This document shows positions 11,464 to 61,241 of a DNA stretch of 64,000 bases, one piece after another. A program made the translations under genes and the position numbers. The DNA is from Cenarchaeum sp. Its GTDB lineage: Archaea > Thermoproteota > Nitrososphaeria > Nitrososphaerales > Nitrosopumilaceae. The stretch is taken from positions 704,001 to 768,000 of the forward strand of contig CBDESU010000002.1 in the NCBI GenBank assembly GCA_965242695.1. The letters are read 5' to 3'. Position 1 is the stretch's first letter. Each line of letters starts with the position of its first letter. The notes below the pieces were generated by a model, which saw only the letters and a program-made list of their open reading frames with translations, searched no databases and was not told the origin of the DNA.

Positions 11464-11575
11464 CTGTACGCGGCGCCGCGCTATTTACGTGTTGAAGGGG
11501 GCCGTTCGCGCCGCCGCTCGGGCCGCATGCGGCGGGGCCAGGCAGGGCGGGGCGGTGCGTGCGCGCGCGATCCCC

Positions 11576-11668
11576 GCCGCGCAGAGGTCGAACCTCAAGG
11601 GCCCAAAGGGAACACGCTGGCGCGGCCCACTAACGGCTTTTGGAGACGGACTCCATTTACGTTGCGGC
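11576..11668 (-). ncRNA. Candidate structured ncRNA with T-loop-like hairpin
   Basis: Closing stem (CCCC)GCCGC/GCGGC(GGGG); internal stems UGGAG/CUCCA, GGGCC/GGCCC and GAGG-UUCGA-CCUC; TATA-like GGTAAAAC about 26 nt upstream. Confidence 0.4.
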
Positions 11669-11781
11669 GGGGCCTGGAAGGGCCCGGTTTTACCCGCGCG
11701 CGCACGGGCGCAGGCGCCGCCGCCCCCGATATAGCGGTTGCCGCCCGCCGATCTTTAATACGCCGCCTCGCCACACCGGAC

Positions 11782-14181
11782 ATGGCGACCCCGACGATCC
11801 TGCCCGAGAACGTCGGGTACCTTGCCCTGTTTGCCGTCGGCCTGATAATGGCCGCCGCCGTCACGCTCATGGTCAGGGCCGAGGCGAGGTGGGGCGGCGC
11901 GCGCAAGACGTCCGAGTGGTTCTACACGGCGGGGCGCACGATCAAGACGGGGCTGATAGCCTCGTCGATCGTCTCGGCGTGGACCTGGGCGGCGACCCTC
12001 CTGCAGTCCTCGACGGTCGCCTTCGAGTTCGGCGCGGCCGGCGCGTTCTGGTACGCCGCCGGCGCCTCGATCCAGGTCATACTGTTCTCGATCCTGGCAA
12101 TAGAGCTCAAGCGCAAGGCGCCGATGACCCACACGTTCCCCGAGGTGCTGTACGTCCGGTACGGCCGCCACCCGCACAAGGTGTTCCTGTTCTTTGCGCT
12201 GCTGACGAACACCGTCGTCACGGCCATGCTCGTGCTCGGCGGCGCGGCCGTCGTCAACTCGCTCACCGGCGTCGACATAACGCTTGCCGCGTTCCTGCTG
12301 CCGGCCGGCATCATCCTGTACACGGTGTTCGGGGGGCTAAAGGCGACGTTCTTTGCCGAGTACCTCAACGCGGCGTTCATCTTTGCCGTCGTGCTCGTGT
12401 TCGTCACGGCGATCTACTTTGCAAGCCCCGACATCGGCGGCGTGCCGGGCATGTACGAAAAGCTCACCGAGGCGGCCGCGCTGCGCCCCGTCGAGGGCAA
12501 CGCGCTCGGCAGCTACCTGACCCTTGCGTCGGCCGGCGCCCTCGTGTTCGGCGTGATCAACATCGTCGGCAACTTTGGCACCGTGTTCGTCGACCAGTCG
12601 TACTGGCAGAGGGCGATTGCGGCCAGGCCGCGGTCGGTCGCCGGCGGCTTCCTGGCCGGCGGCCTTGCGTGGTTTGCGATACCGTTCGCGCTTGCGACCA
12701 CGCTCGGCCTTGCCGCCGTCGCCACCGGCATCGAGCTGACCGAGGACGAGGTCGGGCTCGGACTGGTCGCCCCTGCGGCCGCATCTGCCCTGATGGGCGA
12801 CCTCGGGGCGATCCTCATACTCACGATCGTCTTCACCGCCGTGACGGCGGCCGGCTCGTCGCAGCTCGTCAGCGTCTCGTCGCTGCTCACGTACGACGTG
12901 TACCGCACGTACCTGCGGCCGTCGGCGACGGGCCGCCAGCTCATGCGCATATCGCGGTTCGCCATACTGTCGTTTGGAATAGGCATGGGCGCGCTCGCCT
13001 CGTTCCTGTTCCAGCTCGGCGTCGGGCTCCAGTACGTCTACCTCATGATGGGCATACTCATCGGGCCGGCCGTCGCGCCGATCTCGCTCGGCGTGCTCTG
13101 GCGCCGCACCAACCGGCGGGCCGCCACGGCGGCCGCCGTGGCCGGCCTGGCCGCCGGCTTGGCGGCCTGGACCGGAGCCGCGGCGGCCCTGTACGGCGAG
13201 GTTACGATCGAGACAACCGGACGCACGGCGGCCCTGCTCGCCGGCAACGTCGCATCGATAGGGGTGAGCCTGGCCATCACGCTCGCCGGCAGCGCGGCGT
13301 TCCCCGAGAGGTTCGACTTTGGGGTGCTCCGGCAGAAGATACACCTCGTCGACGACCGGGTGCGCTCGGCGATGCGGCGCGACTCGGACGAGGCAAGGCT
13401 CCGCCGCGCATCGTCCGTGTGCAAGAGGGCCGGCATCGGGGTCACGCTGTTCCTGGTGGTCGTCTGGCCGGCCTCGCTGTACCTGTCGGGGCACGTCTTT
13501 ACGCCCGTCTCGTTTGCCGCGTGGATCGCGCTCATGGTCGTGTGGGCGTTCGGCTCGGCGGCAACGGTCGCACTGCTGCCGGTGATCGAGGCCCGCTCGA
13601 GCATAGGCAGCATACTCGCAAGGGCCGGCGCGGCCGCCTCGGCGGCGGCCTCTGGAGCCGCCGCCCGCTCGGCCGACCCGCCGCCCGCGCGCCGGCTGCT
13701 CGTGGCCATTGACGGCTCGCCGCCGTCGCTGCGCGCCCTCGGCGGCGCGCACGGCCTGTTCGGCGCCGACGCAAGGGCGCGCGTCTACATGCTGCACGTG
13801 GTCAGGCCTCCTTCCGATGCGCCGCCGCCGGGCGGCAGCGGAGGCGGCCCGGGGGCAGACCACGAGGCGATGATGCGCGAGGGCCGTCTGGTCCTCAGGA
13901 GCGTGGCGGTGCCGCGGCACGCCGGCGGCGGCAGCGGCGGCAACGACTACCGCCGCATAGTAAAGGTCGGCGACCCGGCCAGGGTCATTGCAGAGACGGC
14001 CGACCGGCTCGGCGTCGACGTTGTCGTGATGGGGCGTAGCGGCCTGGGCAGGCGCAACGGCGCCGCGGCCGGCGCCGATGCCGATGCCGCAGGCGCGGCC
14101 CGCCGCCCGCCCGGCGAGATGGGGAGCGTGGCCATCTCGGTCCTTGCCCTGACCTCAAAGCCGGTCGCGTTTCTCGGCTAG
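11782..14181 (+). CDS. dur3: DUR3-type urea:sodium/proton symporter (SSS family) fused to a C-terminal universal-stress-protein domain
   Basis: SAWTWAATLLQSS, GNFGTVFVDQSYWQRAIA, LLTYDVYRTY; C-terminal LLVAIDGS...VGDPARVI...DVVVMGRSG...GSVA USP signature; TTTAATA box at about 11755. Confidence 0.9.
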   Translation: MATPTILPENVGYLALFAVGLIMAAAVTLMVRAEARWGGARKTSEWFYTAGRTIKTGLIASSIVSAWTWAATLLQSSTVAFEFGAAGAFWYAAGASIQVILFSILAIELKRKAPMTHTFPEVLYVRYGRHPHKVFLFFALLTNTVVTAMLVLGGAAVVNSLTGVDITLAAFLLPAGIILYTVFGGLKATFFAEYLNAAFIFAVVLVFVTAIYFASPDIGGVPGMYEKLTEAAALRPVEGNALGSYLTLASAGALVFGVINIVGNFGTVFVDQSYWQRAIAARPRSVAGGFLAGGLAWFAIPFALATTLGLAAVATGIELTEDEVGLGLVAPAAASALMGDLGAILILTIVFTAVTAAGSSQLVSVSSLLTYDVYRTYLRPSATGRQLMRISRFAILSFGIGMGALASFLFQLGVGLQYVYLMMGILIGPAVAPISLGVLWRRTNRRAATAAAVAGLAAGLAAWTGAAAALYGEVTIETTGRTAALLAGNVASIGVSLAITLAGSAAFPERFDFGVLRQKIHLVDDRVRSAMRRDSDEARLRRASSVCKRAGIGVTLFLVVVWPASLYLSGHVFTPVSFAAWIALMVVWAFGSAATVALLPVIEARSSIGSILARAGAAASAAASGAAARSADPPPARRLLVAIDGSPPSLRALGGAHGLFGADARARVYMLHVVRPPSDAPPPGGSGGGPGADHEAMMREGRLVLRSVAVPRHAGGGSGGNDYRRIVKVGDPARVIAETADRLGVDVVVMGRSGLGRRNGAAAGADADAAGAARRPPGEMGSVAISVLALTSKPVAFLG

Positions 14182-14186
14182 GCCGC

Positions 14187-15050
14187 CTATCCCTTCCTGA
14201 TTCCCGCGAACGGCCTGCCGGCGCATCGGGACCTTGCGGCCGCGACGACGTCGAGCACGGCATTCCTGACGTCGGCGGCGCGCGCCCCGAGCAGCCTGCC
14301 GAGTATGCCGGATCCGTCGCGCATGACGCTGCACCCGCCCGCCACGCCGGCCCGCCCCGACACGGCCGCCCCGACATCGCCGAGCAGCGCCTCGACGTTG
14401 CGGCGCGGCGTCATCACGTATACGGTGCCGACTACGCCGTGCCCTCCCATCGAGCCGGGCGCCGACAAGTCTAGCCTCGACGGCTCGAGCCGCGCCGCAT
14501 CGGCGAACCTGCGCCGCCCGCCGCACCCGAACGCCTCCGTCCCCAGGTCGCATGCATCGTACTTGAACTCCTCGCCCATTGCCGCCCGCCCCGCCGCGAC
14601 GACCTCGGAGCCGACCATGGTCGCCCCGTCGTGCACGTCAAGCCGCACGCGCTGCCTGAACCTGGCCCCCTCGTACGGGATGATCTGGTCGGGGATCATC
14701 TCCAGGTACGCCCCGTCGGCGACCGACACGCGCACGTCCTGGGAGGCAAGGCCGCCGGGATCCATTCCGTACACCCTGGTCGCGCCCTGCGTCGTGACGT
14801 GCGCCATGGACCACGGCCCGGCCGCTATGTCCACCGAGTACCTGTCGCCCTGCAGCATCCCGCCGGCGACCGACGCCACGTACAGGTACGCCATCGGCGA
14901 CCCCGGCCCGTCGCAGTACATGACGCGCTGCGCCGCGAGCGGAACCTTGGCCGAGACCCTCTCGGCCACGGTGCGGCCGCCCGGCCCGCCTGCCGCAAAC
15001 GCCACCTCGAGCCGCCCGGCCCGGCCCGCCGCCTCTCCCCTGCCCGTCAT
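14187..15050 (-). CDS. ureD: Urease accessory protein UreD
   Basis: GGMLQGD, TTQGATRVY, LEMIPDQIIPY, GRAAMGEEF. Confidence 0.9.
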   Translation of the reverse strand: MTGRGEAAGRAGRLEVAFAAGGPGGRTVAERVSAKVPLAAQRVMYCDGPGSPMAYLYVASVAGGMLQGDRYSVDIAAGPWSMAHVTTQGATRVYGMDPGGLASQDVRVSVADGAYLEMIPDQIIPYEGARFRQRVRLDVHDGATMVGSEVVAAGRAAMGEEFKYDACDLGTEAFGCGGRRRFADAARLEPSRLDLSAPGSMGGHGVVGTVYVMTPRRNVEALLGDVGAAVSGRAGVAGGCSVMRDGSGILGRLLGARAADVRNAVLDVVAAARSRCAGRPFAGIRKG

Positions 15051-15745
15051 GCCCCTCCCTCCCCGCCGGCCGCCCTGGGCGGCGCATCGAACAGCAGGTC
15101 GCGCACGATCCGGCCTGCCACGTCGCCGACGCCCTGGTCGGTCGTGCAGTCTACCATGGCAAACGGCCTGCCAGCGCGCACGCGCTCCGCATCGGCGCGC
15201 ATCACGCCGAGGTCGGCGCCGACGTGCGGCGCAAGGTCGATCTTGTTTATGACGAGCAGGTCGCAGTTCTGTATGCCGAGGCCGCCCTTGCGCGGGTACT
15301 TGTCCCCGCCGGCGACATCCACAATGTAGATGAAGTAGTCGGCAAGCAGCGGGCTGAACGTCGTCGTCACGTTGTCCCCGCCGCTCTCGATCAGGATCAG
15401 GTCGAGCTCGGGGTGGTCCCTCTCCATCTCCTCGATCACCGACATGTTGAGCGACGGATCCTCCCGCACCGCCGTGTGCGGGCAGCCGCCCGTGGCGAGC
15501 CCCACGACCAGGTTCTCTGGGAGCAGCCCCTGGTCCGTGGCCAGCCCCGCCCTCATGCGGTCCGCGTCCTCCTTTGATATGACGTCGTTCGATATGATGC
15601 TCATCCTGTACCCGCGAGCGGCAAGGACGGGAACGACCCGCTCGATGAGCATGCTCTTTCCGGCGCCGACGGGTCCGCCTATGCCGACCCTTGGTATGCG
15701 GCGCGGCCCCCCCTCTTCCTCGCGGCCCCCCTCGTTCGCGTCCAT
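15047..15745 (-). CDS. ureG: Urease accessory GTPase UreG
   Basis: GIGGPVGAGKS, TGGCPHTAVRED, IESGGDN, PRKGG, INKIDL. Confidence 0.95.
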   Translation of the reverse strand: MDANEGGREEEGGPRRIPRVGIGGPVGAGKSMLIERVVPVLAARGYRMSIISNDVISKEDADRMRAGLATDQGLLPENLVVGLATGGCPHTAVREDPSLNMSVIEEMERDHPELDLILIESGGDNVTTTFSPLLADYFIYIVDVAGGDKYPRKGGLGIQNCDLLVINKIDLAPHVGADLGVMRADAERVRAGRPFAMVDCTTDQGVGDVAGRIVRDLLFDAPPRAAGGEGGA

Positions 15746-15759
15746 TTTGCACCCTCCCC

Positions 15760-16518
15760 TCACGCGGCGAACATCCTCGCGTCCATCCGCTCGTGGTCCA
15801 TCTGCGCAATCTCGGCGAGCGGGGCGAACTGCCACGCCCCCTCCGCCCCCTCCCCGCTTTCCGCGCGGCCTCCGGCCTCCCGCGCCGCCTCGGCCATCCG
15901 CGGCTTGAGGCCGTGTATGATCTCCTGCCCCTCCATGTGGTGTATGATCCCGAGCCGCAGCGCCGCGCCGACCATCGATGCGGCAAAGCCGTACAGCGCG
16001 ACAAGGGCCGCATGCCCTGGGGTCATCCCGAGCGAGCCGCAGCATGCCCCGAGCGCGACGGGATACGCGCCAGAGGCGGCGCCCGACGAGATGGCCCGAT
16101 GGTACCTGGCTAGGGCATTGCCGTCCCCGCCGAACCCCTTGACGCACCTGGCCAGCTGCGCGCCCGACCTTGCCGCCGCCTCCCTCTGCTCCCTGACCGG
16201 CTTGAGGGCCGAGCACCTTTCGTCCAGCTCGACAAGCCCCGCATCGTCGCCGCCGGCCGCAAGCGAGCACGCACGCGCCGCCATGACGCAGTCGCACGGC
16301 CCGACCTGCTGGTCGATCAAGGTGCGGCACAGCCCTGCTAGCGCGCCGGCCGACGCTATCGACCCGTCAAGAAACATCGACTCGAGGCCGTTGGACGTCG
16401 CAAACAGCCCCGACGGAAACATAGAGTCGGACAGCTGCATCGCGCCGAGCAGCTGCATCTCGGCCCCGCCGGCGGCCGTGCCGCCGCCGTCGTTGCGGCC
16501 GCCGTCATTCGTGGCCAC
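15760..16518 (-). CDS. ureF: Urease accessory protein UreF
   Basis: QLSDSMFPSGLFATSNGLE, AALRL, C-terminal HERMDARMFAA. Confidence 0.92.
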   Translation of the reverse strand: MATNDGGRNDGGGTAAGGAEMQLLGAMQLSDSMFPSGLFATSNGLESMFLDGSIASAGALAGLCRTLIDQQVGPCDCVMAARACSLAAGGDDAGLVELDERCSALKPVREQREAAARSGAQLARCVKGFGGDGNALARYHRAISSGAASGAYPVALGACCGSLGMTPGHAALVALYGFAASMVGAALRLGIIHHMEGQEIIHGLKPRMAEAAREAGGRAESGEGAEGAWQFAPLAEIAQMDHERMDARMFAA

Positions 16519-17088: not shown

Positions 17089-17961
17089 CTAGAATGCGCC
17101 GGCGGCCACCCCCGACACTATGGCGATCCCGATTGCCACGCTGGCGATGCCAATGCCTGCCCGCATCGCCCTCTTGGCCCTGTCCAGCCTGGCCGCAAAG
17201 GCAAACGGGAGCGACAGCGTCCCGCTCGCCAGCATCATGCCGGCGACCGAGCCGGCCCCAAAGGCGAGGACCATCGCGATCCCCGCCTCCATGCTTCCCA
17301 TGGCGGATGCGCCCAGGGCGATCAGGCCCCCGCTGCCTGCCAGTCCGTGTATGCAGCCGATCAGGTACGACCTGTGCCCATGCCGGTGCGCACTGCCCCC
17401 GTCCCAGCCTCCGTGCGAGTGCGGGTGCGTGTGGACCGTGCCCCCCGCGTGCGAGTGCGGGTGCGTGTGGACCGTGCCCCCCGCGTGCGAGTGCGGGTGC
17501 GGATGCGCCCCGCCTCTTCCCCTTCCCCGCATCCTCCTCCAAAGGCCAAGCATGCTGGTTCCGGTCCACGCCGACACGCCGAGCGCCACGAGCATGACGC
17601 CGACGGCCGCCTCGAGCCCGTCAAAGACGGCGCCCGGAATGCTCAGCGAAAAGGCGAGCACGCCGAGCGCCACGAGCAGTATGGCCGAGGTGTGGCCGGC
17701 GCCCCACAGCGCGCCGAGGAGCGAGCCGCGCGACAGGGCCCTTTTGACGCGTACGGGATCCGCCTCTTCCCCTCGCCGCCCTCCCGTCCTCCCGTGACCC
17801 GATGCGAGCACGGCCGCCACGTGATCGGGATCCAGGGCGTGCGCCAGCCCGACGACCACCCCAGCCGAGAGGAGCGCGGCAGGCGCCGCCGCGGCCGCAA
17901 CAGCGGCAACCCCCTCCCCGCCTCCGGCCCCCATCGCCTGCGCCACAATCTCGCCGAGCAC
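17089..17961 (-). CDS. Nickel/cobalt permease (UreH/NiCoT-like) with His-rich loop
   Basis: GLAHALDPDHVAAV, WGAGHT, GCIHGLAGSG; HPHSH repeats. Confidence 0.85.
   Translation of the reverse strand: MLGEIVAQAMGAGGGEGVAAVAAAAAPAALLSAGVVVGLAHALDPDHVAAVLASGHGRTGGRRGEEADPVRVKRALSRGSLLGALWGAGHTSAILLVALGVLAFSLSIPGAVFDGLEAAVGVMLVALGVSAWTGTSMLGLWRRMRGRGRGGAHPHPHSHAGGTVHTHPHSHAGGTVHTHPHSHGGWDGGSAHRHGHRSYLIGCIHGLAGSGGLIALGASAMGSMEAGIAMVLAFGAGSVAGMMLASGTLSLPFAFAARLDRAKRAMRAGIGIASVAIGIAIVSGVAAGAF
17412..17501 (-). repeat. 36-bp in-frame tandem repeat expanding the His-rich loop (HPHSHAGGTVHT, about 2.5 copies)
   Basis: Identical 36-nt units at 17412 and 17448, partial copy at 17484. Confidence 0.85.
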
Positions 17962-17974
17962 AGCAACCGCCCTC

Positions 17975-18388
17975 CTACTCCTCCCCGCGGCCGCCGCCCT
18001 CCGGCCAGAGGCCCTGCCGCCCGATCTCGATTGGCCTGTCTATCGCCACATGGGCGGCCTTGCCGAGCCCGTCCATCTCGAGCTCAAACCTCATCGAGTA
18101 GAGCATCTCTGGCACGCCGACCATTACGTTGTGCGGCTCGAGCATGCCGCGCGCATCCTCGGCTATCCGCCGCCCGTCCCTGCCGTCCCCGACCGACACG
18201 GCAACGTAGGCTGCGAACATCAGCAGGGCATCGTTGACGTTGAGCCGCATGCCGCGCGCGAGCATGTCCCTGATCCTGCCCGCCGAGGCGGCAAGCACGT
18301 CGTCGTCAAGACCCGCATACTCGAACACCCTGCGAAGCGGGGCTGCGTGCGGCCCGGCCTCGGCGGCCGTGACCGCGATGCGCATCAT
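17975..18388 (-). CDS. Orphan urease gamma-subunit-like protein
   Basis: LARGMRLNVNDAL...GDGRD...ARGMLEPHNVMVGVPEMLYSMRFE aligns by eye with Ure[11 protein letters not shown]...RDGRS...[24 protein letters not shown]; novel N-terminal extension of about 35 aa. Confidence 0.7.
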   Translation of the reverse strand: MMRIAVTAAEAGPHAAPLRRVFEYAGLDDDVLAASAGRIRDMLARGMRLNVNDALLMFAAYVAVSVGDGRDGRRIAEDARGMLEPHNVMVGVPEMLYSMRFELEMDGLGKAAHVAIDRPIEIGRQGLWPEGGGRGEE

Positions 18389-19500
18389 CCCCTCTTGGGG
18401 ATCACGGCGCGGGGCCCGCCAAAGCTGTACGTGTTCCCCGTCCCCCTGTAGTCGCGCGGCCTGACCGGATCGCCCCCCTCCAGCCCGCGCTTCGTGAGCG
18501 ACAGGCCGGCGAGCAGCTCTACGATCAGCCGCTGGCCTAGGCCCGACGTTATGCCCCCGTTGTACGAACTGTTGTCGCTAACGTCGTACGCCGGCGCGAC
18601 CTCGACGAGGTCCATGGCGAACCTGTCCGGGTCGAACGACTTTGAGAGCAGGCGGATCATCCGTATGCCCTCCCTCGACGTCAGGCCGTTCGGCTCGGGC
18701 TCGCCCGTGCCGGGCGCGTACGCCGGATCGAACGAGTCGATGTCCCAGCTCAGGTACACCGCGTCGGTGCCGTCGTTGGCCCTGTCGGCGATCTCCTTTG
18801 CGATGTAGTCGATGCCGAGCTCCTCGACGTCGAGCATCGTAAACCACTGAAAGTCCTGGTCGGACATCCACTTGTACAGGTCGGGCCCCGGCCAGTACCC
18901 GCGCGGCCCCACTAGCGAGTAGTTCCTGCCCCTCAGGCACCCGATCTCCATGATCCTCCTAATGTGCGCGCCGTGGTCGTACTTGTACCCCGTCAGCCCC
19001 TGCGGGGCGCAGTCCGCGTGGGTGTCGAAGTGGATCATGCCGATGTTCTTGTACTTTTTGGCGAACGCCCGCACGTTGGCGTACGTGATCGAGTGGTCGC
19101 CGCCGAGCATGACGGGGATGCCGTCCTGCTCGAGCACCTCCTTTACCTTTACGGTCATCCTCTTGTGCGACTCGATGACGTCGCCGGGCGAGACCTGCAC
19201 ATCCCCGTAGTCGACCGTCCTGAACGTCCCGAACGGGTCGGCGCCGGTCTCTATGTTGAACCTCTCGTACGGCGGCGACGGTATCGTGGATGCGGCCCTG
19301 AGGGCGCGCGGCCCGTACCTTGCGCCCGGCCGTATCGTCGTGCCAAAGTCGAACGGCTCCCCTATTATGGCCACATCGGGCCTCGCCTCGACGAGCTGCT
19401 CGCGCGTCTGCACCCACGGCAGGTGCAGGAACGTGTTGATCCCGACGAACGGCGCCACGTCGGCGCCGCGGTACGCGTCGCCGTAGAACTCCATGCCCAT
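18385..19500 (-). CDS. Ureohydrolase (agmatinase/arginase superfamily), substrate unknown
   Basis: GARYGPRALR, GGDHSIT, HFDTHAD, WDIDSFDPAYAPGTGEPE, DLVEVAP: full binuclear metal ligand set. Confidence 0.9.
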   Translation of the reverse strand: MGMEFYGDAYRGADVAPFVGINTFLHLPWVQTREQLVEARPDVAIIGEPFDFGTTIRPGARYGPRALRAASTIPSPPYERFNIETGADPFGTFRTVDYGDVQVSPGDVIESHKRMTVKVKEVLEQDGIPVMLGGDHSITYANVRAFAKKYKNIGMIHFDTHADCAPQGLTGYKYDHGAHIRRIMEIGCLRGRNYSLVGPRGYWPGPDLYKWMSDQDFQWFTMLDVEELGIDYIAKEIADRANDGTDAVYLSWDIDSFDPAYAPGTGEPEPNGLTSREGIRMIRLLSKSFDPDRFAMDLVEVAPAYDVSDNSSYNGGITSGLGQRLIVELLAGLSLTKRGLEGGDPVRPRDYRGTGNTYSFGGPRAVIPKRG

Positions 19501-19544
19501 GCGAACCGCACCACGCTACGGCCGGCATATACATAAGGAATCCA

Positions 19545-19555
19545 CGTAAAGTACG
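19545..19555. promoter_or_regulatory. Palindromic site CGTA-AAG-TACG upstream of the ureohydrolase TATA box
   Basis: Motif recurs at 20910, 24688 and 24721. Confidence 0.6.
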
Positions 19556-19606
19556 CACGCGCGCCGGCCGGGGCACTGGTTAAATGCAGGCGCGGCAATT
19601 CCCTGC

Positions 19607-20878
19607 GTGGCGGGATCCGCGGGGGGCGAGTGGGCGCTGATCGCCGAGGGGCGCCGCTGGGAGGGGTACGGCGAGTTTCAAAGGGCCGCCTCGTGCTTTG
19701 AGAGGGCCCTGCGCATCGACGCGCGCAACGCCGTCGCGCTGCTGCGCCTCGGGCACGCGCTGTACGGGTGCGAGAGGTTCTCGGACGCCGAGGCGCGCTT
19801 TTCCGAGGCCCTCGCCGAGGCGCCGCGCGGGATCGACGCGCTGTACGGCCGCGGCCTTGCCCTTGAAAAGCTAGGCCGCTTCGAGGAGGCGGCCGGGTGC
19901 TTTGCGGCCGTCTCCGAGATCGACGCCTCGTACTCTGACGCGCAGTCCTGCAGGGCATCGTGCCTGAGCGGCGCAGGCCGCCACGCCGAGGCGCTGCGGC
20001 TCGTCGACGAGGCCCTAACGTCGCGGCCGGGCGATTCGTCCGCCGCCTTCTACTGCAAGAGCCGCATCCTGGGCAGGATGGGGCGCGCAAAAGAGTCCGT
20101 GTCGTGCCTTGAGGAGGCCATACGCGAGGACTCGAGGCGCTCTGCCGAAAGGTACGAGGAGGGCGCGGCCCTGGCCCGGCGCGGCAGGCACGAGGATGCG
20201 ATCGCGCTGTACACGGAGGCCATCAGGCTGGACCCAAAGAACACGCGCGCCCTTGTCGCAAAGGGCTGGACGCTGGACTTGGCCGGCCTCCCGCCCAAGG
20301 AGGCCGTGGCCTACTTTGACAGGGCGCTGGCCGTCGATCCGCGCTGCCACGAGGCGCTCATCAACAAGGGCATACTGTACGACCGCACGGGCCTCTACAA
20401 GAAGGCCGTCGAGTGCTTTGACCGCGTGCTCGGCGACGATCCGGCCAGCGCAAGGGCCATGTACAGCAAGGCCGTCTCCCTGTTCGGCCTAAACCAAAAG
20501 GCCGCGGCCGTGTTCTTCTGCGAGAGCGCCATCCGGCTCGACCCGACGAACGTAAAGGCGCTGTGCAGCATGGTATGGATACTCGAGCACAGCAAGAGGT
20601 ACGCCGACGCGCTCGCCTACTGCGACAGGGCCCTTGCCGAGGACCCCGGCTACGCCTACGCGGCGAGCTATCGCGGCAAGCTGCTCCTGCTCCTCGGCAG
20701 GCACGACGAGGCCCTCTCGCAGTACGACAGGGCGCTAGAGCTCGACCCCGGCAACCGCACCGCCATCTACCACCGCGACAGGGCCCTCGAAAAGGTAGAG
20801 GCGGAGGAGCGGCGGCGGGGCGGCGGGGCGCCGCGGCTGCGGCGGCTGTTTGGCCGCCCCGGGCCGGCGGCCGCGTAG
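19607..20878 (+). CDS. Tetratricopeptide-repeat protein
   Basis: About 11 TPR units (A..CFERAL.IDP..ALxxKG pattern); TTAAAT box at about 19580. Confidence 0.88.
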   Translation: MAGSAGGEWALIAEGRRWEGYGEFQRAASCFERALRIDARNAVALLRLGHALYGCERFSDAEARFSEALAEAPRGIDALYGRGLALEKLGRFEEAAGCFAAVSEIDASYSDAQSCRASCLSGAGRHAEALRLVDEALTSRPGDSSAAFYCKSRILGRMGRAKESVSCLEEAIREDSRRSAERYEEGAALARRGRHEDAIALYTEAIRLDPKNTRALVAKGWTLDLAGLPPKEAVAYFDRALAVDPRCHEALINKGILYDRTGLYKKAVECFDRVLGDDPASARAMYSKAVSLFGLNQKAAAVFFCESAIRLDPTNVKALCSMVWILEHSKRYADALAYCDRALAEDPGYAYAASYRGKLLLLLGRHDEALSQYDRALELDPGNRTAIYHRDRALEKVEAEERRRGGGAPRLRRLFGRPGPAAA

Positions 20879-20907
20879 CGCCGGCGGCCGCGCGGCGCGC
20901 CGGAAAA

Positions 20908-20922
20908 TGCGTATTGTACGCA
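20908..20922. promoter_or_regulatory. Palindromic site TGCGTA-TTG-TACGCA upstream of the 84-aa gene
   Basis: Perfect 6-bp arms, upstream of the CTTAAAT TATA box. Confidence 0.6.
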
Positions 20923-20974
20923 CGCCCCGCCCGCCCGAAAAAAGCCTTAAATCAAACCGCCGCACTTGCGGGGC

Positions 20975-21229
20975 ATGGTTCAAGTCTCGACGGCCGAGGA
21001 CATCGACAGGGAGTCGCGCAGGGTGATCGCCTCGCTCTACGGCGACGGCGTGTCGGACTTTCGCGTCAACGAGTCGTTTGCGGTGCCCGAAAAGGGGCCG
21101 CGCGAGGCGTGGGACGTGCAGGTCAACTTCATGCTCAACGGCCTAAAGTACACCGTCGACCTGGAGATACAGGAAAAGGACTGCCAGGTGACCAACGCGC
21201 GCCTGATCGACACGATGACCCCCCTGTAG
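20975..21229 (+). CDS. Small conserved hypothetical protein (84 aa)
   Basis: Host-like codon use; GAAAAAGCCTTAAAT BRE/TATA about 25 nt upstream. Confidence 0.7.
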   Translation: MVQVSTAEDIDRESRRVIASLYGDGVSDFRVNESFAVPEKGPREAWDVQVNFMLNGLKYTVDLEIQEKDCQVTNARLIDTMTPL

Positions 21230-21264
21230 TTTTTTGCGTGCGGCCGCGGGCGGGCGGCCCCTGC

Positions 21265-22977
21265 CTAGTAGTGGTGGTGCATCTGCCGCTGCTCGAGCCC
21301 CTCCTGCTCCCAGTGGCTGTGGTTCCTGCCGGGATCCTTGTGCGCGTGGACCGTCCCGTCTATGTGGCAGTGGGTGTTGTCGATGAGGTCCTTTACGAAC
21401 ACGTCGTCGACGTTGAGGATCAGGGCGGCCGTCTCGACGGCCGACTTTAGCACCTGCCTCTTGACGGCGGCCGTCTCGACGACGCCCGACCCCGACATGT
21501 CGGCGACCCTCCTCGCAGACGAGTCTATGCCGTGCCAGCAGCGGGCGGGGCCCCCGCCTGCCTCCGCCCCGCCGCCTCGCCGGGCGTGCTCCGACCTGAG
21601 CCTGGGCAGGGCGTCGAGCGGGCTCATCCCGACGTTCCCTGCAAGGGTCGCCGGGACCTCCTCGAGTGCATCGGCGACGCGCGATGCGGCAAGCTGCCGC
21701 TTGCCCTCGAGCGAGACGGCGCGCTCCCTGACGTCGCGCGCCATGGCGGCCTCGCATGCGCCCCCGCCGAAGACGACGTACGGCCTCTCGATATAGTTGC
21801 GGAGGACAAAGATCGCGCTCTTTGCCGTCCGGTGGAACTCGTCAAGGTGCTCCTTTGAGACCGCCCGCAGCAGCAGCGTGACCGACCGGGGCCTCTCGGA
21901 CTCGACGAACACCATCCTGTCGCCGCCGACGCTGCGCTCGTACACGCGGGATGCGAAGCCGAGCTCTTCCTCGGATATGTCCTCTACGCTGCGGCACGTC
22001 CTTGCGCCGGTCGCCTTTTCGAGCCACCACAGGTCGTTGTACTTTGCCCTGCGCACGGAGACAATGCCCTCGGCGGCGAGCATCTCTTGGGCGCGCGCGC
22101 CGATCCCCTTCCTTGATATGACCACCCTGGCGCCCGACTCGACGACCCTTCTTGCGAGCATCGCCACATTGGCGCCCTCTTGCAGGGCGAACTGCGCCAT
22201 GTTGTTCGGCGACGTCACTATGATCTCGGACTCTGTCCTTGTCCTGGTCGCCTCCAGCTCGTCGTTGATCAGCAGCACCTTTGCGTCCCTGACGGCGCGG
22301 GGCATGGCCGGGCTGTCCACGGGCTTGTCGATAACGGTCCCCATGACCAGCTCTATGCGCTCCGAGCCGCCCCGCTTTTCCTCGATCTTGATGTCGTCGA
22401 CGTCGACCGCGCCGGCGCGCGCATCGTGCACGGCCGAGACCGCGCCGACGACGGCATCGCGCACGGACTCCCTGTCGGCCATCGAGTCGAATATCGCCTT
22501 GCCCGAGAGGCAGGTGTCGACGAGGCTGTTCATCGTCGCAGCGTCCGCGCCCCCCGCCCGCACCTCCATCCCGTCGAGCGACTCTAGGGCGAACTCGAGA
22601 CCCGCCTCGAACCCGTCGATTATGGATGCCGTCGGCACGCCGGAGGCGCGCAGGTGCTGCGCGTGGCCGAGCAGGGCGCCGATCAGGACGGCCGCCGTCG
22701 CCGTGCCGTCGCCGACGTGCGTGTCGACGGCATTGACCCCCTCGACGACGGCCTTTGCCGCCGGATGGTCCACGTCGAGCTTGCGCAGGAACGCCCCACC
22801 GTGCTTTGTAATCGTCGCCTCGCCGAGTATGTCGATGTACACCTTTTCCATGCCCCTGGGGCCGAGCGACGTCCTTACGGTGTCCGCGGCCAGGCGAGCT
22901 GCCACCAGGTTGTACGCCTGCGACTCGCGCGCGCCGATCCTGGACAGCTCGGGGTTGAATATGTCGGGATACTTCAT
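21265..22977 (-). CDS. Divergent group II chaperonin (thermosome) paralogue with His-rich C-terminal tail
   Basis: RTSLGPRGMEK, VGDGTATA, DDIKIEEKRGG, GGGACE, VKRQVLKSAVETA; tail HCHIDGTVHAHKDPGRNHSHWEQEGLEQRQMHHHY. Confidence 0.88.
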   Translation of the reverse strand: MKYPDIFNPELSRIGARESQAYNLVAARLAADTVRTSLGPRGMEKVYIDILGEATITKHGGAFLRKLDVDHPAAKAVVEGVNAVDTHVGDGTATAAVLIGALLGHAQHLRASGVPTASIIDGFEAGLEFALESLDGMEVRAGGADAATMNSLVDTCLSGKAIFDSMADRESVRDAVVGAVSAVHDARAGAVDVDDIKIEEKRGGSERIELVMGTVIDKPVDSPAMPRAVRDAKVLLINDELEATRTRTESEIIVTSPNNMAQFALQEGANVAMLARRVVESGARVVISRKGIGARAQEMLAAEGIVSVRRAKYNDLWWLEKATGARTCRSVEDISEEELGFASRVYERSVGGDRMVFVESERPRSVTLLLRAVSKEHLDEFHRTAKSAIFVLRNYIERPYVVFGGGACEAAMARDVRERAVSLEGKRQLAASRVADALEEVPATLAGNVGMSPLDALPRLRSEHARRGGGAEAGGGPARCWHGIDSSARRVADMSGSGVVETAAVKRQVLKSAVETAALILNVDDVFVKDLIDNTHCHIDGTVHAHKDPGRNHSHWEQEGLEQRQMHHHY

Positions 22978-23027
22978 CGCTCGCTCGCCCCCTGCGCCCG
23001 CTCCCGCCAAATGGCGGGCGGGCCCCG

Positions 23028-24644
23028 CTACGCCGCCCTGGCCTCCGCCGGCGCCCGCTGGCCCGGCCTTGCCTCCGGCCTGTCCGCCCCCTCGTCCCCT
23101 CCGGCATCGTCCCCGCCGAGCCCCGACGTCATAAAGCCGCTCTTGAAGTGCTTGAGGTCCTCGCCGGCGATCACATCCTCCTCGGGCGGGACATAGTCCC
23201 TCACGTCGTGCCGGGCCTTTCCGGGGTACCTGCCCTGCGTCGCGAGCGCCACCGCTATGAACACCAGGAACGAGACCATGGCGGCGACCATCGTGTCGAG
23301 CCCGACCAGATCCTCGGGTATGGCAAAGAAGAGGTACAGCCTGAGGAACGAGCCGACGAGGAGGGCGGCCACGGCGGCCGGCATGTTCGACTTTTTCCAG
23401 AACAGGCCGAACGTGAGCGGCGCGAGCGCGCCGGCGAACATGATGTCGAACGCGAGCACAAGGTAGACGCCGGGCGCCGGCACGAGGTAGCCGAGCGTCG
23501 CGCCGGCGGCCATCATCGGTATTATGGCCACGCGCGTCATCAGGAGCAGCCTCCTGTCGCTCGTGCCCGGCCGGCCTAGCCACCTCCTCTGGATTATGCG
23601 GACAGCCAGGTTGCGCGAGACGACGCTCGATATGGCCAGCAGGCCGCCGCTTGCCGTCGACATCGACGCGCCGACGACGCCCATCAGTATGGCGGCCCCT
23701 ATCGCGAACGGCAGGTGCTCGGTCGCCAGTATGGGCAGGACCAGGTCGGGCAGCGTGTCGGCGGGGAGGTAGTAGAGCGCGACGATGCCGAGCATGCTCG
23801 TCGGGACGACCGTGAACAGGGTCAGGGCCCCGCCCATGAAGGCGCCGCGCCGCGCCACCTTTGGGCTCTTTGCGGCAAACACCCTCTCCATAAAGTCGAG
23901 CGCGATGATGTCCCCGAGGCCGAGCGCGAGTATGGTCGCCCAGCTTATCAGCGCGCCGTTGCCCACGTCGAAGAGGCCTGACAGGTCCACCGCCGCTGCC
24001 GGCGCGCTCCCGTAGATGACGTCCCACGGCGCGTCGGCGAACCCGCCGGCGAAGAATATGAAGCCGGCCCAGAACGCGGCGATCGCCAGGTACACCTGGA
24101 AGAGGTTCGTGTACGCCGATGCGAACAGCCCGCCGGCCGAGGTGTACACCAGGACGACCAGCGCCGATATCAGTATGCCCCAAAAGTAGTCTATCCCGAA
24201 TACGGTCTCCATGATGAACCCACTTGCGGCCAGGTTGCCGGCCACCAGTATGGTAAAGCTGATGATCATCAGGACGCTCGATATGCCCTCGGCCCCGTTG
24301 CCGAACCGCCTGAAGTAAAAGTCCGGCAGGGTGATCATCGACATGCGGTTGAGCGGCCGCGCAAAGAACGCGGCCGTGACGAGCAGGCATATGCCGAGCC
24401 CTATGGGGACCGTCGCGCCGGCCCAGAACCCGAACTCGAAGACGAGCGCCGCGTTGCCGAGCGTGGAGTTGCCGTCGACGGCCTGCGCGGCGAGCATCGT
24501 GCCGACCATCACGAGGGGGAGGCTCTTGCCGGCCACGATGAGGCGCTTGCCGCTCTTCCTGACGAGCCTGCCGGCGAGGACGCCGACGGCGAGCGTCAGC
24601 ACGATGAACGCGGTGATCGCGATGCCGAAGCCGTCAAACTCCAT
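23028..24644 (-). CDS. Sodium:solute symporter family transporter (not DUR3-type)
   Basis: VAGKSLP, ITLPDFYFRRFG, YTSAGGLFASAYTN, FMERVFAAKS, GASMSTASG; about 13 TM helices. Confidence 0.88.
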   Translation of the reverse strand: MEFDGFGIAITAFIVLTLAVGVLAGRLVRKSGKRLIVAGKSLPLVMVGTMLAAQAVDGNSTLGNAALVFEFGFWAGATVPIGLGICLLVTAAFFARPLNRMSMITLPDFYFRRFGNGAEGISSVLMIISFTILVAGNLAASGFIMETVFGIDYFWGILISALVVLVYTSAGGLFASAYTNLFQVYLAIAAFWAGFIFFAGGFADAPWDVIYGSAPAAAVDLSGLFDVGNGALISWATILALGLGDIIALDFMERVFAAKSPKVARRGAFMGGALTLFTVVPTSMLGIVALYYLPADTLPDLVLPILATEHLPFAIGAAILMGVVGASMSTASGGLLAISSVVSRNLAVRIIQRRWLGRPGTSDRRLLLMTRVAIIPMMAAGATLGYLVPAPGVYLVLAFDIMFAGALAPLTFGLFWKKSNMPAAVAALLVGSFLRLYLFFAIPEDLVGLDTMVAAMVSFLVFIAVALATQGRYPGKARHDVRDYVPPEEDVIAGEDLKHFKSGFMTSGLGGDDAGGDEGADRPEARPGQRAPAEARAA

Positions 24645-24687
24645 CGGCAGGAATTGCCCGCCGTTTATTTAACCATTGAAAAATTTC

Positions 24688-24731
24688 AGTAAAGTACGTC
24701 TTTAGGCACGAAAGGCGGAGCGTATAGTACG
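24688..24731. promoter_or_regulatory. Two palindromic sites (AGTA-AAG-TACG, CGTA-TAG-TACG) upstream of the SSS-chaperonin operon
   Basis: First site lies at nearly the same distance from the ATG (about 45 nt) as the site before the ureohydrolase. Confidence 0.6.
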
Positions 24732-25061: not shown

Positions 25062-25583
25062 ATGCCCAAGAACGGCTACTCGACGCTGGGGCTCAAGCCG
25101 GGCACGTTCTCACTCCTCGAGAGCCTCACCGACACGTTCTACCCGGGCATGTTCCTGCCGAGCACCCTGATCATGCTCATGAACGAGGTCAGGCGGGGGT
25201 CGTACCAGGTCAGCATGCACCCCGTGCAGGTCAGCAGGTCGGGGCGCTACAAGACGCTGACGGTCCGCTCCGACGTCCGCGCGTGGCTCGAGGAGACGTA
25301 CGAGGAGAACTCGACGGCGTACAAGGGCAGGTACCATACAAAGTGCTTTGCCCACTTTGTGAGCTACTTTGTGGCCAACCTCTTCAAGTCAAAGTTCGAG
25401 GCGCAGCACAACGTGATAAAGCTCAAGGAGTCCGACTTTACGTGGCTCCACGACGAGTACCAGAAGCACAGAAAGGCCGACGGCGACCCCTACGACACGT
25501 CGTCGTTCGAGCGGTTCGCCGACTCGTACGTCAACGACCTCCTCGGCAAGGTGAGGGCCGCAAGGGAGATGCTCGCCGCATGA
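25062..25583 (+). CDS. Hypothetical protein with internal beta-alpha-alpha repeats (ribbon-helix-helix-like)
   Basis: YSTLGLK, YKTLTVR and NVIKLK each followed by helices; TTTAAA box at about 25036. Confidence 0.65.
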
Positions 25584-25656: not shown

Positions 25657-25959
25657 ATGATCTTCACCCAGGGCGAGGCCGAGAAGATGCAGGTGTTCGT
25701 CGCAGCCGAGATCGCCCGGCGCCGCCGCGGCCGCGGCCTAAAGCTGAACCACCCAGAGGCCGTCGCGCTGATCGCCGACCACATACTCGAGGGGGCCAGG
25801 GACGGCAGGTCGGTGCCCGAGCTTGCAAGCTCGGGCCGCTCCGTGCTCGCGCGCGGCGACGTCCTGCCGGGAGTGCCCGAGATGATCCGCTCCGTCCAGG
25901 TGGAGGCTACGTTTGAGGACGGCACAAAGCTCGTCACGGTCCACGATCCGATAGTGTGA
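25657..25959 (+). CDS. ureA: Urease subunit gamma
   Basis: [38 protein letters not shown]. Confidence 0.97.
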
Positions 25960-26327
25960 TGCCCATGATCCCCGGCGAGTACTTTCTGGGAGACGGCGAC
26001 ATCGCCGCCAACGAGGGGCGCCCGACCGTCACGGTCAGGGTCGCCAACACGGGCGACCGGCCCGTGCAGGTCGGCTCGCACGCGCACTTCTTCGAGGTCA
26101 ACAAGGCGCTATCGTTCCCGCGGGCCGACGCGTACGGGTTCCACCTGAACATACCGGCGGGCACGTCGGTGCGCTTCGAGCCGGGCGACGAGCGCGACGT
26201 GGAGCTTGTCGGGTACGGCGGGCGCCGCACCGTGCACGGGTTCAGCGGCCTGGTCCGCGGCCCGCTCGACGAGAGGCGCGATGCCGCGATGCGGGCGGCC
26301 CGGGAGGGCCGCTTCAAGGGGGTGTAG
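25959..26327 (+). CDS. ureB: Urease subunit beta
   Basis: [36 protein letters not shown]. Confidence 0.97.
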
Positions 26328-26330
26328 GCG

Positions 26331-28055
26331 ATGGCCCTGACCATACCGCGCAACCGGTACGTAGACCTGTTCGGGCCGACGGCCGGCGACCGCATCCGGC
26401 TTGGCGACACCGACCTCGTAATAGAGGTCGAGAGGGATCTCTTGCGGCACGGCGACGAGGCCGTGTTCGGCGGGGGCAAGAGCGTGCGGGACGGGATGGC
26501 GCAGGCCTCGGGCGCGCCGCGCAGCGCCTCGCTCGACCTGGTCATTACGAACGCGGTCGTCATGGATCCCGTCCTCGGCATCATAAAGGCCGACATCGGC
26601 GTCAGGGACGGCCGCATAGCCGGGGTCGGAAACGCCGGCAACCCCGACATCATGGACGGCGTAGACATGACGATATCGTCGCATACGGAGGTCATCGCCG
26701 GCGAGCACACCATCTGCACGCCGGGCGCAATCGACGCGCACATTCACTTCATCTCGCCGCAGCAGGCGGTGACGGCCGTGTGCGCCGGCACCACGACGAT
26801 GATCGGCGGCGGGACGGGCCCCGCCGACGGCACGAACGCGACGACGTGCACGCCCGGCGAGTGGAACATACGCCGCATGATAGAGTCCGTCTCGGAGTTT
26901 CCGCTCAACTTTGGCCTCCTCTGCAAGGGCAACGACTCGCAGGAGGGGCCGCTGCTCGAGCAGGTCGCCGCCGGAGCGTGCGGCCTCAAGCTGCACGAGG
27001 ACTGGGGCACGACGCCCGCGACGATAGATGCGGCCCTCCGCGTCGCCGACCAGACCGACACGCAGGTTGCAATACACACGGACACGCTCAACGAGTGCGG
27101 CTACGTCGACGACACGATAGCCGCAATCGCGGGCAGGACTATACACACCTACCACACCGAGGGGGCCGGCGGGGGGCACGCACCCGACATTATGCGGGTC
27201 GCCGGCGAGGCCAACGTCCTGCCGTCCTCGACGAACCCGACACGCCCGTTCACCGTCAACACTCTCGAGGAGCACCTGGATATGATGATGGTGTGCCACC
27301 ACCTGAGCCCGTCGGTCCCCGAGGACGTCTCGTTCGCCGAGTCGCGCATACGGCGCGAGACCATAGCGGCCGAGGACGTCCTGCACGACATCGGGGCGAT
27401 CAGCATGATGTCCTCCGACAGCCAGGCCATGGGGAGGGTCGGCGAGGTGACGGCGCGCAACTGGCAGACGGCCGACAAGATGAAGCGCTCGACGGGGCCG
27501 CTGCCCGAGGACATGCGCGCCTCGGGCGGGCGCAACGACAACTCAAGGGCCCTGCGCTACCTTGCAAAGATCACGGTCAACCCCGCCATAGCGCACGGCG
27601 TCTCGCGGCACGTCGGCTCGCTCGAGCCAGGCCGCCTTGCCGACATAGTGGTGTGGTCGCCGCAGTTCTTTGGGGCCAGGCCCAGGATGGTCGTAAAGGG
27701 AGGCATGATCGCGTACGCGCTCATGGGCGATCCGAACGCGTCGATCCCGACGACCGAGCCGGTCATGTACAGGCCCATGTTCGGGGCCCTCGGCGGGGCC
27801 AGGCGGTCGACGTCCGTGACGTTCACGTCGAAGGCGGCCCTCGAGGCGGGGCTGGCCTCCAAGATTGACGCCGGCCGGCCGCTCGTCGCCGTCGAGGGGT
27901 GCCGCTCGATAGGCAAGAGGGACATGGTCCGCAACTCGCTGACGCCGAAGATCGAAATCAACCCCGAGACGTACAGGGTTACGGTCGACGGCAAGGTTGC
28001 CGAGGCCGAGCCTGCCGAGCGCGTCCCCCTCGGCAGGCTGTACAACCTGTACTAG
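26331..28055 (+). CDS. ureC: Urease subunit alpha
   Basis: [48 protein letters not shown]. Confidence 0.98.
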
Positions 28056-57892: not shown

Positions 57893-58111
57893 TTTCTACA
57901 CCTAACAAACTTTTTTCTGGTCAACATTGTTACTGGGCATTAGATTTTTGTACGTGACACCAGTAATATATCAAAGCGCAAAGATTTTGAACACTTTTTG
58001 TATTAGACATGTTACGCTTTAGAAGCACTTCATATTTATAATTATGATTGTGTCGGCAAACTACCTCGAGATTTAAAGTCACCCCTACCCTCTCCCACAA
58101 ACAACAAATAT

Positions 58112-61239: not shown

Positions 61240-61241
61240 AG

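Follow-up and report, generated by a model that had tools for sequence, protein, structure and literature searches.

Ammonia-oxidizing archaea (AOA) drive nitrification in oceans and soils, and the substrates known for them are few, namely ammonia, urea and cyanate. The described systems closest to the one reported here are the Ni-dependent guanidinases of Synechocystis (GdmH; 7ESR/7OI1) and Nitrospira inopinata (9FEK), part of a pathway that in a nitrifier leads from a guanidino compound to urea and, via urease, to ammonia (PMC11410670, PMC12186494; here and below, these two papers, PMC11399263, PMC5797428 and PMC11131427 are cited from excerpts of their text). The operons of Ni-dependent GdmH and of metformin hydrolase hold nickel chaperones, and that of metformin hydrolase also a nickel transporter (PMC11399263, PMC12186494). 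Other urea-releasing relatives are guanidinobutyrase (GbuA; 3NIO), guanidinopropionase (GpuA; 3NIP) and proclavaminate amidinohydrolase (PAH; 1GQ6). In this study we analyzed a stretch of 64,000 nucleotides from Cenarchaeum sp. (GCA_965242695.1, contig CBDESU010000002.1, positions 704,001 to 768,000; hereafter, the window), in which a ureohydrolase (UH), an SSS-family symporter and several accessory genes lie between two blocks of urease genes. Comparative evidence indicates that this conserved gene set, found in many urease-carrying AOA, probably imports a guanidine-type nitrogen compound and converts it to urea.

Relatives of UH have been met before under another name. SpeB, the housekeeping agmatinase, belongs to the same superfamily, and its name is the one that databases give to UH-type proteins. 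Most AOA are credited with two to three copies of speB (PMC10753782), and work on sponge symbionts treats agmatinase as ubiquitous SpeB (PMC6790972). For one soil clade, the clustering of an SSS gene with an expressed "agmatinase (SpeB)" has been noted and a role in urea balance suggested (PMC11131427). The sequence-only reading of the window had called the module undescribed. That holds in part: the clustering of SSS and "agmatinase" genes is mentioned in passing in the excerpts of the soil study, which dates from 2024, and full-text searches, supplements excepted, turned up no paper with a view of the subfamily other than agmatinase/SpeB.

Two gene units between the urease genes

The source genome (3.89 Mb, two contigs; G+C content of the window, ~68%) carries archaeal amoA, which identifies the organism as an AOA. 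The island consists of two minus-strand units between ureD-G-F-E (minus strand) and ureABC (plus strand). In unit 1, the genes for UH, a paralogue of UreA (urease gamma) and a permease are followed by ureEFGD; the start of the UreA paralogue overlaps the UH stop by 4 bases, the permease gene begins 13 bp further on, and ureE lies 89 bp after it. Unit 2 comprises the symporter gene and, after a 50-bp gap, that of a thermosome paralogue. Three plus-strand genes, encoding a TPR protein, an 84-aa protein and a 173-aa protein, lie between or beside the units, and two DUR3-like transporters flank the island. Gene content and order, down to the ATGA overlap, the 13-bp gap and the position of ureEFGD, are as first read from the sequence. 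The members of the two units and the urease genes are as follows.

18385..19500, minus strand: ureohydrolase (UH), 371 aa; PF00491, 271.6 bits; "GTGE / SYNGG-insertion" subfamily; candidate urea-releasing guanidino-compound hydrolase
17975..18388, minus strand: UreA (urease gamma) paralogue, 137 aa; PF00547, 32.9 bits (cut-off, 23.9)
17089..17961, minus strand: His-rich NicO/UreH-like permease, 290 aa; GTG start; six transmembrane segments by eye; Ni/Co suspected
23028..24644, minus strand: SSS-family symporter, 538 aa; PF00474, 92.4 bits (cut-off, 22.8); candidate importer of the UH substrate
21265..22977, minus strand: thermosome (group II chaperonin) paralogue with a His-rich C-terminal tail, 570 aa; PF00118, 424.2 bits
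16505-16999 (ureE), 15760-16518 (ureF), 15047-15745 (ureG) and 14187-15050 (ureD), minus strand: urease maturation genes, directly downstream of the permease gene
25657..28055, plus strand: ureA, ureB and ureC, urease, the presumed urea consumer (true ureA, 25657-25959)

The ureohydrolase represents a distinct subfamily

UH matches the ureohydrolase family profile PF00491 (cut-off, 22 bits) over profile positions 2-277 of 280. Its residues H136, D159, H161, D163, D253 and D255, together with the conserved Glu E300, are invariant in a 27-sequence alignment; the metal ligands of the family are the His and Asp residues of the GGDH, DxHxD and DxD motifs. The protein falls below the agmatinase cut-offs (TIGR01230, 156.6 versus 174.3; NF002564, 204 versus 302) and also below those of the NCBIfam models for formimidoylglutamase (HutG) and arginase. 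A second PF00491 gene, of the SpeB type, is found on the other contig of the genome (C1:413412-414191); its product is ~31% identical to UH and very distant from it in a tree. In our AOA sample of 61 Nitrososphaerales genomes, G000 included, a ureohydrolase-family match (E <= 1e-20) is present in 55. UH orthologues (74-100% identity) occur in 19 of the 61, one more genome has a 37% match, and the remaining family matches are at 27-38%. With a separate paralogue on another contig, orthologues in only 19 of 61 genomes and scores under the agmatinase cut-offs, UH is not the housekeeping agmatinase, an identity that would have spoken against the initial reading.

Outside AOA, the nearest relatives of UH are haloarchaeal proteins of the "agmatinase family", at 50-53% identity. 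AOA and haloarchaeal UH have in common a Glu after PGTG, an SDxxSYNGG insertion and the loops DHGA(H/W) and GPRG(Y/F)WPGP, and both extend ~35 residues past the end of bacterial relatives. The loops GYKYDHGAHI and GPRGYWPGP, singled out in the sequence-only reading, are thus present in the window UH and typical of its subfamily. Among the best 120 hits, 77 carry the signature (Glu after PGTG plus an S[YF][NS]GG insertion), including 76 of the 83 hits at >=50% identity; 35 have a Thr and no insertion, all at <=46% identity, and 8 have other or unreadable motifs.

A quick IQ-TREE analysis of 60 rows placed 29 AOA rows in one clade (SH-aLRT 99), with 12 haloarchaeal and 4 further rows as its sister (SH-aLRT 93). 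The AOA and haloarchaeal clades sit on a long shared branch (99), apart from Chloroflexota/Actinomycetota relatives and with the genome's own housekeeping paralogue far off. The tree was built without the CHARACTERISED enzymes GbuA, GpuA, GdmH and SpeB; profile scores against solved structures were used instead. In the same tree, the UH of G008, G034 and G011, genomes of the window's own family, groups with that of Nitrososphaeraceae, a placement that may reflect transfer between AOA families or deep paralogy. The UH proteins of the f4-type loci L032 and L033 have a His-rich C-terminal tail of their own, 9-10 of their final 45 residues being His.

Across genera, identities within the same loci are 81-95% for UH, 71-77% for UreC, 51-82% for the symporter, 45-68% for the chaperonin, 33-48% for the permease and 26-46% for the UreA paralogue. 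UH is therefore more conserved than UreC and the rest of the block, arguing for selection on UH and not for recent transfer of the block.

We compared UH and its subfamily with characterized enzymes. In a single-sequence search of solved structures, GbuA was the best match (E 2e-50), followed by the N. inopinata guanidinase (2e-47) and GdmH (3e-46). The subfamily profile scored GdmH at 232 bits, GbuA at 220, the N. inopinata guanidinase at 217, proclavaminate amidinohydrolase at 196, guanidinopropionase at 183 and agmatinases at <=158; metformin hydrolase subunit A is a clear relative as well (124-144 bits). By these scores, the Ni guanidinases and guanidinobutyrase lie about equally near the subfamily. 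Motifs common to UH and the guanidinases are GTT, a PEP that follows the pocket position and, in the GxxG loop, an aromatic residue; a dedicated importer (for UH, a candidate one) and metal-handling genes are nearby on both sides. UH differs from them by a Glu for the pocket Trp, a GbuA-like loop, the SDxxSYNGG insertion and the ~35-residue extension, and its module by an importer of the SSS family, not ABC/APC, and by its archaeal host. Thr105, His222, Trp313 and Glu344 (N. inopinata numbering) are described as possibly important for guanidine catalysis (PMC11410670). UH keeps the equivalents of Thr105, His222 and Glu344 (GTT, D-H-G and V-E-V align), but non-guanidinases have them too, so that they discriminate little. 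The replacement of the pocket Trp by Glu, in contrast, sets UH apart from canonical guanidinases.

GbuA, GpuA and proclavaminate amidinohydrolase share an H-G-x-x-x-R-R loop with UH, and all release urea. They differ in their low identity (~40% or less, by eye), a Thr in place of the Glu (UH position 267), and the lack of insertion, extension and accessory genes. The metformin/dimethylguanidine hydrolase operons (MefH/MfmAB) are similar in organization, combining a ureohydrolase with a nickel importer (hupE), the chaperones hypA/hypB and urea genes. Metformin hydrolase needs a second co-encoded subunit (PMC11399263), and the UreA paralogue coupled to UH could play a comparable role; the partner of metformin hydrolase is, unlike it, a second protein of the ureohydrolase family, the helpers are HypA/HypB and not a chaperonin, and the product is guanylurea. 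Taken by its sequence, UH is a subfamily of its own and not a canonical guanidinase, agmatinase or guanidinobutyrase.

The associated genes track UH, not urease

ureC is present in 27 of the 61 AOA genomes and UH in 19 of those 27; none of the 34 ureC-negative genomes has UH. The eight genomes with ureC but without UH include two of the window's genus and one with a completeness of just 72%. It is UH, and not urease, that the symporter, the permease, the His-tailed chaperonin and the 173-aa gene follow. The symporter occurs in 18 of the 19 UH-positive genomes, the sole exception being a 210-contig assembly, and in none of the eight urease-only or the 34 ureC-negative genomes. For the permease, the counts are 16 of 19 UH-positive genomes and none of the eight with urease only; five urease-lacking genomes gave weak matches. 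All 16 genomes with the His-tailed thermosome are UH-positive (16/19); these calls rest on alignments through the tail (E 4.5e-129 or better), and other thermosome matches are at the housekeeping level, with 35-42% identity and an end near residue 502. The 173-aa gene was detected in 15 of 61 genomes, all UH-positive.

Gene order tells the same story. UH-centred loci from AOA (18 in number, several on contigs that end early) contain the symporter in 17 cases, the permease in 15, the TPR gene in 13, the 173-aa gene in 12 and the chaperonin in 10. The UreA paralogue directly follows UH in 15; L033 has a more UreA-like copy, and none was found in L029 and L032. The same gene set is present in at least 11 further loci named Nitrosopumilus, Nitrosopumilaceae, Nitrososphaeraceae and Nitrososphaera. 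The urease loci of six UH-negative genomes look different: four are plain ureABC/EFGD with DUR3, and the other two have a tail-less Hsp60 homologue between ureC and ureE, which fits the description by Abby et al. 2018 (PMC5797428).

The sequence-only reading had placed the module inside the urease island. This is so in the window, but in four genomes (G002, G009, G017 and G032) the module, still together, is separated from ureC and the single ureG by 90 kb to 1.3 Mb. In G009, the only ureF match of the genome (G009:C1:816093-816761; L025 2188-3051) is beside the His-tailed chaperonin gene, ~500 kb from ureC/ureG.

The core of the module recurs in a second lineage. Among 151 Halobacteria genomes, 11 encode UH (81-92% identical to P0042) and 43 encode ureC; every UH genome is among the 43. 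An SSS orthologue (39% identical to that of the window) and an AbrB/PhoU-type regulator adjoin UH in 11 of 12 haloarchaeal loci, and urease does so in only 2 of the 12. The conserved core is enzyme plus symporter, nested within urease-positive genomes. Neither the AOA nor the haloarchaeal loci share a gene beside UH that would deal with a carbon by-product. The expectation that the genes co-occur and stay syntenic was borne out across genera, families and a second archaeal class.

The symporter itself is 24% identical over 367 residues to the DUR3-like transporter of the window (DUR3b), in keeping with its initial description as a non-DUR3 member of the SSS family. Its best solved relative is the choline transporter CHT1 (E 7e-23).

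A shared palindromic operator and a candidate regulator

The palindrome CGTA-N3-TACG has three matches in the window versus 0.43 expected, a number reached in 1 of 100 shuffles, and all three are in promoter regions of the island. As the 3.89-Mb genome holds only 95 matches, three within 5.2 kb represent a local excess. The pattern count confirms that the same site lies upstream of both units and of the 84-aa gene. These sites and the plus-strand genes are the following.

19545..19555: operator copy 1, CGTAAAGTACG, 55 nt before the UH ATG, in the divergent UH/TPR promoter region
20910..20920: operator copy 2, CGTATTGTACG, 65 nt before the 84-aa gene
24688..24731: operator copies 3a/3b, a one-mismatch copy (24688-24698) at -54 and a perfect copy (24721-24731) at -87 from the SSS ATG
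19607..20878, plus strand: TPR-repeat protein, 423 aa; TPR families
20975..21229, plus strand: 84-aa protein; no Pfam match
25062..25583, plus strand: 173-aa protein with a tandem ribbon-helix-helix-like N-terminal part; candidate regulator reading the operator

Of the 28 loci that have a recognizable UH start (L039 and L044 are one contig), 20 carry an operator with at most one mismatch at positions -54 to -59 relative to it, in DNA of 33-70% G+C. The copies lie just upstream of a TATA-like TTTA(T/A) box, as judged by eye. There is no match in seven of the 28 loci and a distant, probably fortuitous one in the remaining locus. The operator also precedes the orthologous 84-aa gene in 8 of 19 loci and the SSS gene in 4 of the 6 loci in which the search pattern located its start. 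The sigma-70 promoter/terminator scan is uninformative for an archaeon. The proposed co-regulation of the units gains partial support from this shared operator, kept at a fixed distance from the UH start, which suggests a common control.

The 173-aa protein has no Pfam or NCBIfam match. In its structural model (pLDDT 85.2), a strand-helix-helix arrangement occurs twice and is followed by two helices. The model matched AvtR (Z 5.7; 77 residues, root mean square deviation 3.2), TraY (Z 5.7), DndE (Z 4.7), single-chain Arc (Z 4.1) and VirC2 (Z 4.0), all weakly (Foldseek E 0.017 or weaker). The best matches, at Z 4.0-5.7, are single-chain tandem ribbon-helix-helix DNA binders, which is suggestive of a DNA binder of this type. 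Such a protein would probably control the units via the CGTA-N3-TACG operator.

The 84-aa protein is 32-84% identical across loci and had no match in Pfam, the one sequence-family database searched. Its model (pLDDT 80.7) shows one helix on a four-stranded sheet; the fold search returned only weak, generic cystatin/monellin/NTF2-like matches (E 0.06 or weaker), from which we drew no function.

Accessory proteins and possible handling of nickel

The UreA paralogue aligns along the full length of true UreA with 22-27% identity and has ~20 additional N-terminal residues; N50, V88, G91, P93, P119 and I120 are invariant in the alignment. It scores below the equivalog cut-offs (NF009712, 33 versus 123; TIGR00193, 31 versus 82.3), and orthologues reach 37.6 (L027) and 72.5 bits (L033) against PF00547. 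The 4-base overlap of its gene with that of UH recurs in 15 of 23 loci, and in 20 of these 23 the two genes are spaced by -4 to 0. This conserved arrangement argues for coupled translation of UH and the UreA paralogue.

The permease of the window has no Pfam or NCBIfam match. The gene described as a nickel permease is present, but that label is based on sub-threshold matches of orthologues and on motifs: the L050 protein scores 21.6 against NicO PF03824 (cut-off, 27.7) and the L027 protein 23.8 against DsbD_2 (24.9). Some homologues carry a precomputed PF03824 assignment and the JGI name "high-affinity nickel permease". All 20 copies (19 orthologues and that of the window) contain H-X4-D-H, a nickel-cobalt transporter signature of an early transmembrane helix, and a loop with 11-14 His per 40 residues. 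The window protein is ~40 aa longer than most orthologues, with a tandem His-rich unit, H-P-H-S-H-A/G-G-...-H-T, present three times (17400-17530). Second permease copies lie beside ureC/ureG at G019:C12:5628-6389 and G032:C1:1161686-1162374; the former has an in-frame TGA, and the latter consists of two open frames of ~125 aa each.

By profile scores, the chaperonin is a divergent thermosome paralogue with a Cpn60_TCP1 domain over its full length. Among NCBIfam models it passed Thermosome_beta (422 versus 400) and failed Thermosome_alpha (438 versus 450) and TIGR02339 (428 versus 671). The His-rich tail reported for the window protein, which has 9 His among its final 45 residues, proved to be conserved. 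All 18 complete copies, which come from two AOA families, carry 7-9 His over that length, and the tail reads T-H-x-H-x-D-G-x-x-H-[AS]-H ... H-[ND]-H ... Q-R-x-x-H-[HQ]-[YH]-Y. In a pair of closely related haloarchaeal loci, a chaperonin homologue whose C-terminus has four His (HDHAH...AVGH) is encoded 5-6 kb from UH (L127 1698-3149; L128 16668-18119).

An Hsp60 homologue has been described in urease loci of Nitrosocaldus and Nitrososphaerales and is likewise a chaperonin-family gene among AOA urease genes (PMC5797428). The chaperonin of the window is not this protein: the copies of the latter in G044 and G050 are 25-26% identical to it, lack His throughout their final 45 residues and come from genomes without UH. 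According to the excerpted text, the Hsp60 homologue was found in no Nitrosopumilales genome (PMC5797428); the His-tailed paralogue, in contrast, is present in 16 of 37 genomes of the window's own family, G000 included.

By analogy, nickel is a plausible metal for UH, given the motifs and His-rich loops of the permease, the permease copies next to urease genes, the His-rich tails, and the precedent of GdmH and metformin hydrolase.

Proposed function and alternative explanations

Rather probably, in our estimate, the island is a conserved add-on to urease that makes urea from an imported guanidino compound. The SSS symporter would take up the compound with Na+, UH would cleave its guanidinium group to yield urea and ammonium or an amine, and urease would split the urea to ammonia, to be oxidized by the AOA host. 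In AOA, the permease, the thermosome and the UreA paralogue would act as helpers of UH in metal supply, probably of Ni, and in assembly, with the folding chamber of the thermosome lined by its inward-pointing His-rich tails. What the sequences show directly is gene content, the subfamily of UH, co-occurrence, synteny and the conserved operator; flux direction, transporter cargo, metal and helper roles are inferred from these. A route from guanidino import via urea to urease had been put forward for the window at the outset, and the comparison of gene sets supports it through the distinct enzyme, the co-occurrence and the shared operator. It would explain why UH is never found without urease in two lineages, why the symporter tracks UH rather than urease, and why the surroundings of UH hold no conserved enzyme for a carbon by-product.

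Several observations weigh against this proposal. SSS carriers mostly move neutral or anionic solutes, and ureohydrolases are usually Mn enzymes, manganese being the default of the family. Glu267 of UH aligns with the pocket Trp in the 9FEK and 7ESR alignments (a numbering offset of 2 was counted by hand), and the DHGAH loop resembles those of GbuA, GpuA and PAH, not those of the guanidinases. Unlike in the guanidinase systems, no HypA was found in the source genome (96% complete; HypB was not searched) and no guanidine riboswitch in the window, where 5_ureB_sRNA is the sole Rfam match at the gathering score. The 12 haloarchaeal loci contain neither the UreA paralogue nor the permease, the haloarchaeal UH orthologues are without a His-tailed chaperonin of the AOA type, and the ZIP or His-rich ZnuA-type metal transporters that adjoin UH in 2 of these 12 loci suggest Zn or Mn rather than Ni. 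Kin genomes are not independent, so that the co-occurrence counts overstate the statistics. Finally, AOA lack guanidine-degradation genes by the criteria of Palatinszky et al., as given in the excerpts of PMC11410670, and a floodplain study states the same absence for its metagenome-assembled genomes (PMC12625717).

The alternative that survives best, although we regard it as improbable, is internal recycling. UH would then serve polyamine synthesis or arginine turnover as an agmatinase or arginase for endogenous agmatine or arginine, and the SSS protein would be a low-affinity urea transporter, both proteins feeding or balancing the urea pool for urease. The UH-SSS pair is read in this way in the excerpts of PMC11131427, and urea from either route would explain the nesting of UH in urease-positive genomes. 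Agmatinase models are indeed the best NCBIfam matches of UH, though below cut-off, but the subfamily profile is nearer to guanidinases and GbuA (217-232 bits) than to agmatinases (<=158), and the genome has a separate housekeeping paralogue; a family match is present in 55 of 61 relatives. The absence of the symporter from all eight urease-positive, UH-negative genomes would be odd for a urea carrier; in addition, it has only 24% identity to DUR3, two DUR3-like genes already flank the island, and its relative CHT1 carries choline.

Less likely still is an upgrade of nickel supply or urease maturation, in which the permease, the chaperonin and the UreA paralogue would serve urease, with UH and the symporter as passengers. 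Urease-positive relatives manage without any of these genes, and the set travels with UH even where it is 90 kb to 1.3 Mb from urease, as in four genomes. The UreA paralogue does derive from a urease subunit, but its translational coupling is to UH rather than to any of the urease genes. In Helicobacter, His-rich chaperonin partners are known to act for urease. The position of ureEFGD directly after the permease gene in the window, the only ureF of G009 beside the His-tailed chaperonin, and the second permease copies by urease genes in G019 and G032 also fit this explanation, whereas the recurrence of the UH-SSS core in urease-positive haloarchaea does not. Cleavage by UH without release of urea, with only an indirect link to urease such as shared nickel handling, is the least likely of the three, since nesting in urease-positive genomes of two distant lineages is explained most simply by urea as the product and the haloarchaeal loci have no consistent nickel genes, even though the family includes formiminoglutamase and metformin hydrolase, subunit A of the latter is a clear relative, and the pocket Glu is without precedent among the solved relatives compared.

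Candidate substrates

If the island does convert an imported guanidino compound, our tentative first choice of substrate is guanidine or a very small substituted guanidine. UH is as close to guanidinases as to anything else, and the pocket carboxylate could form a pair with guanidinium through its third amino group. Ammonium would be released as the by-product, in line with the absence of a gene for a carbon by-product, and the best solved relative of the symporter carries a small organic cation, choline. Guanidino acids come close behind as a possibility, with the GbuA-like loop and the missing Trp leaving room for them and for other substrates; agmatine or arginine seems unlikely. Host phosphagens had been considered at first. 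This idea is weakened by the presence of the module in loci named Nitrosopumilus, Nitrosopumilaceae and Nitrososphaeraceae and of its core in haloarchaea, and in view of the AOA loci we reject a sponge-specific substrate.

A more detailed version of the proposal, which we hold to be doubtful, is that many urease-positive AOA, from marine, soil and sponge habitats, gain energy and nitrogen from guanidine or a close small relative such as methylguanidine by means of a Ni-dependent UH with a Glu in its pocket. UH would be metallated inside the His-tailed thermosome, whose tails would bring nickel into the folding chamber, and the UreA mimic would be its adaptor, linking it to the machinery of urease maturation or, for channelling of urea, directly to urease. 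If true, it would overturn the published absence of guanidine-degradation genes from AOA and provide the first "metallochaperonin" of the group II type.

An enzyme and its candidate importer found only in urease-positive genomes point to a further source of organic nitrogen for AOA, which current gene screens overlook as they file UH as "agmatinase". The module would thus widen the known diet of some of Earth's most abundant nitrifiers, and the same core in urease-positive haloarchaea suggests that the pathway is not confined to nitrifiers. At the protein level, three new questions concern the acidic pocket residue of this ureohydrolase subfamily, the coupling of a urease-gamma paralogue to an enzyme other than urease, and the conserved His-rich tail of a chaperonin.

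Other features of the window

The Rfam match to 5_ureB_sRNA (40.3 bits; gathering score, 40) lies at 26487-26775 on the minus strand, antisense inside ureC, and may only mirror the conserved coding sequence of urease alpha. The upstream DUR3-like transporter (11527-14181) has a C-terminal extension of ~170-200 aa that by eye resembles a universal stress protein domain. A low-G+C island at 58100-62000 (0.40-0.43 versus ~0.68) contains open reading frames of 507, 468 and 239 aa; the 468-aa frame has DNA-methyltransferase-like motifs by eye, and the island looks like an acquired restriction-modification unit.

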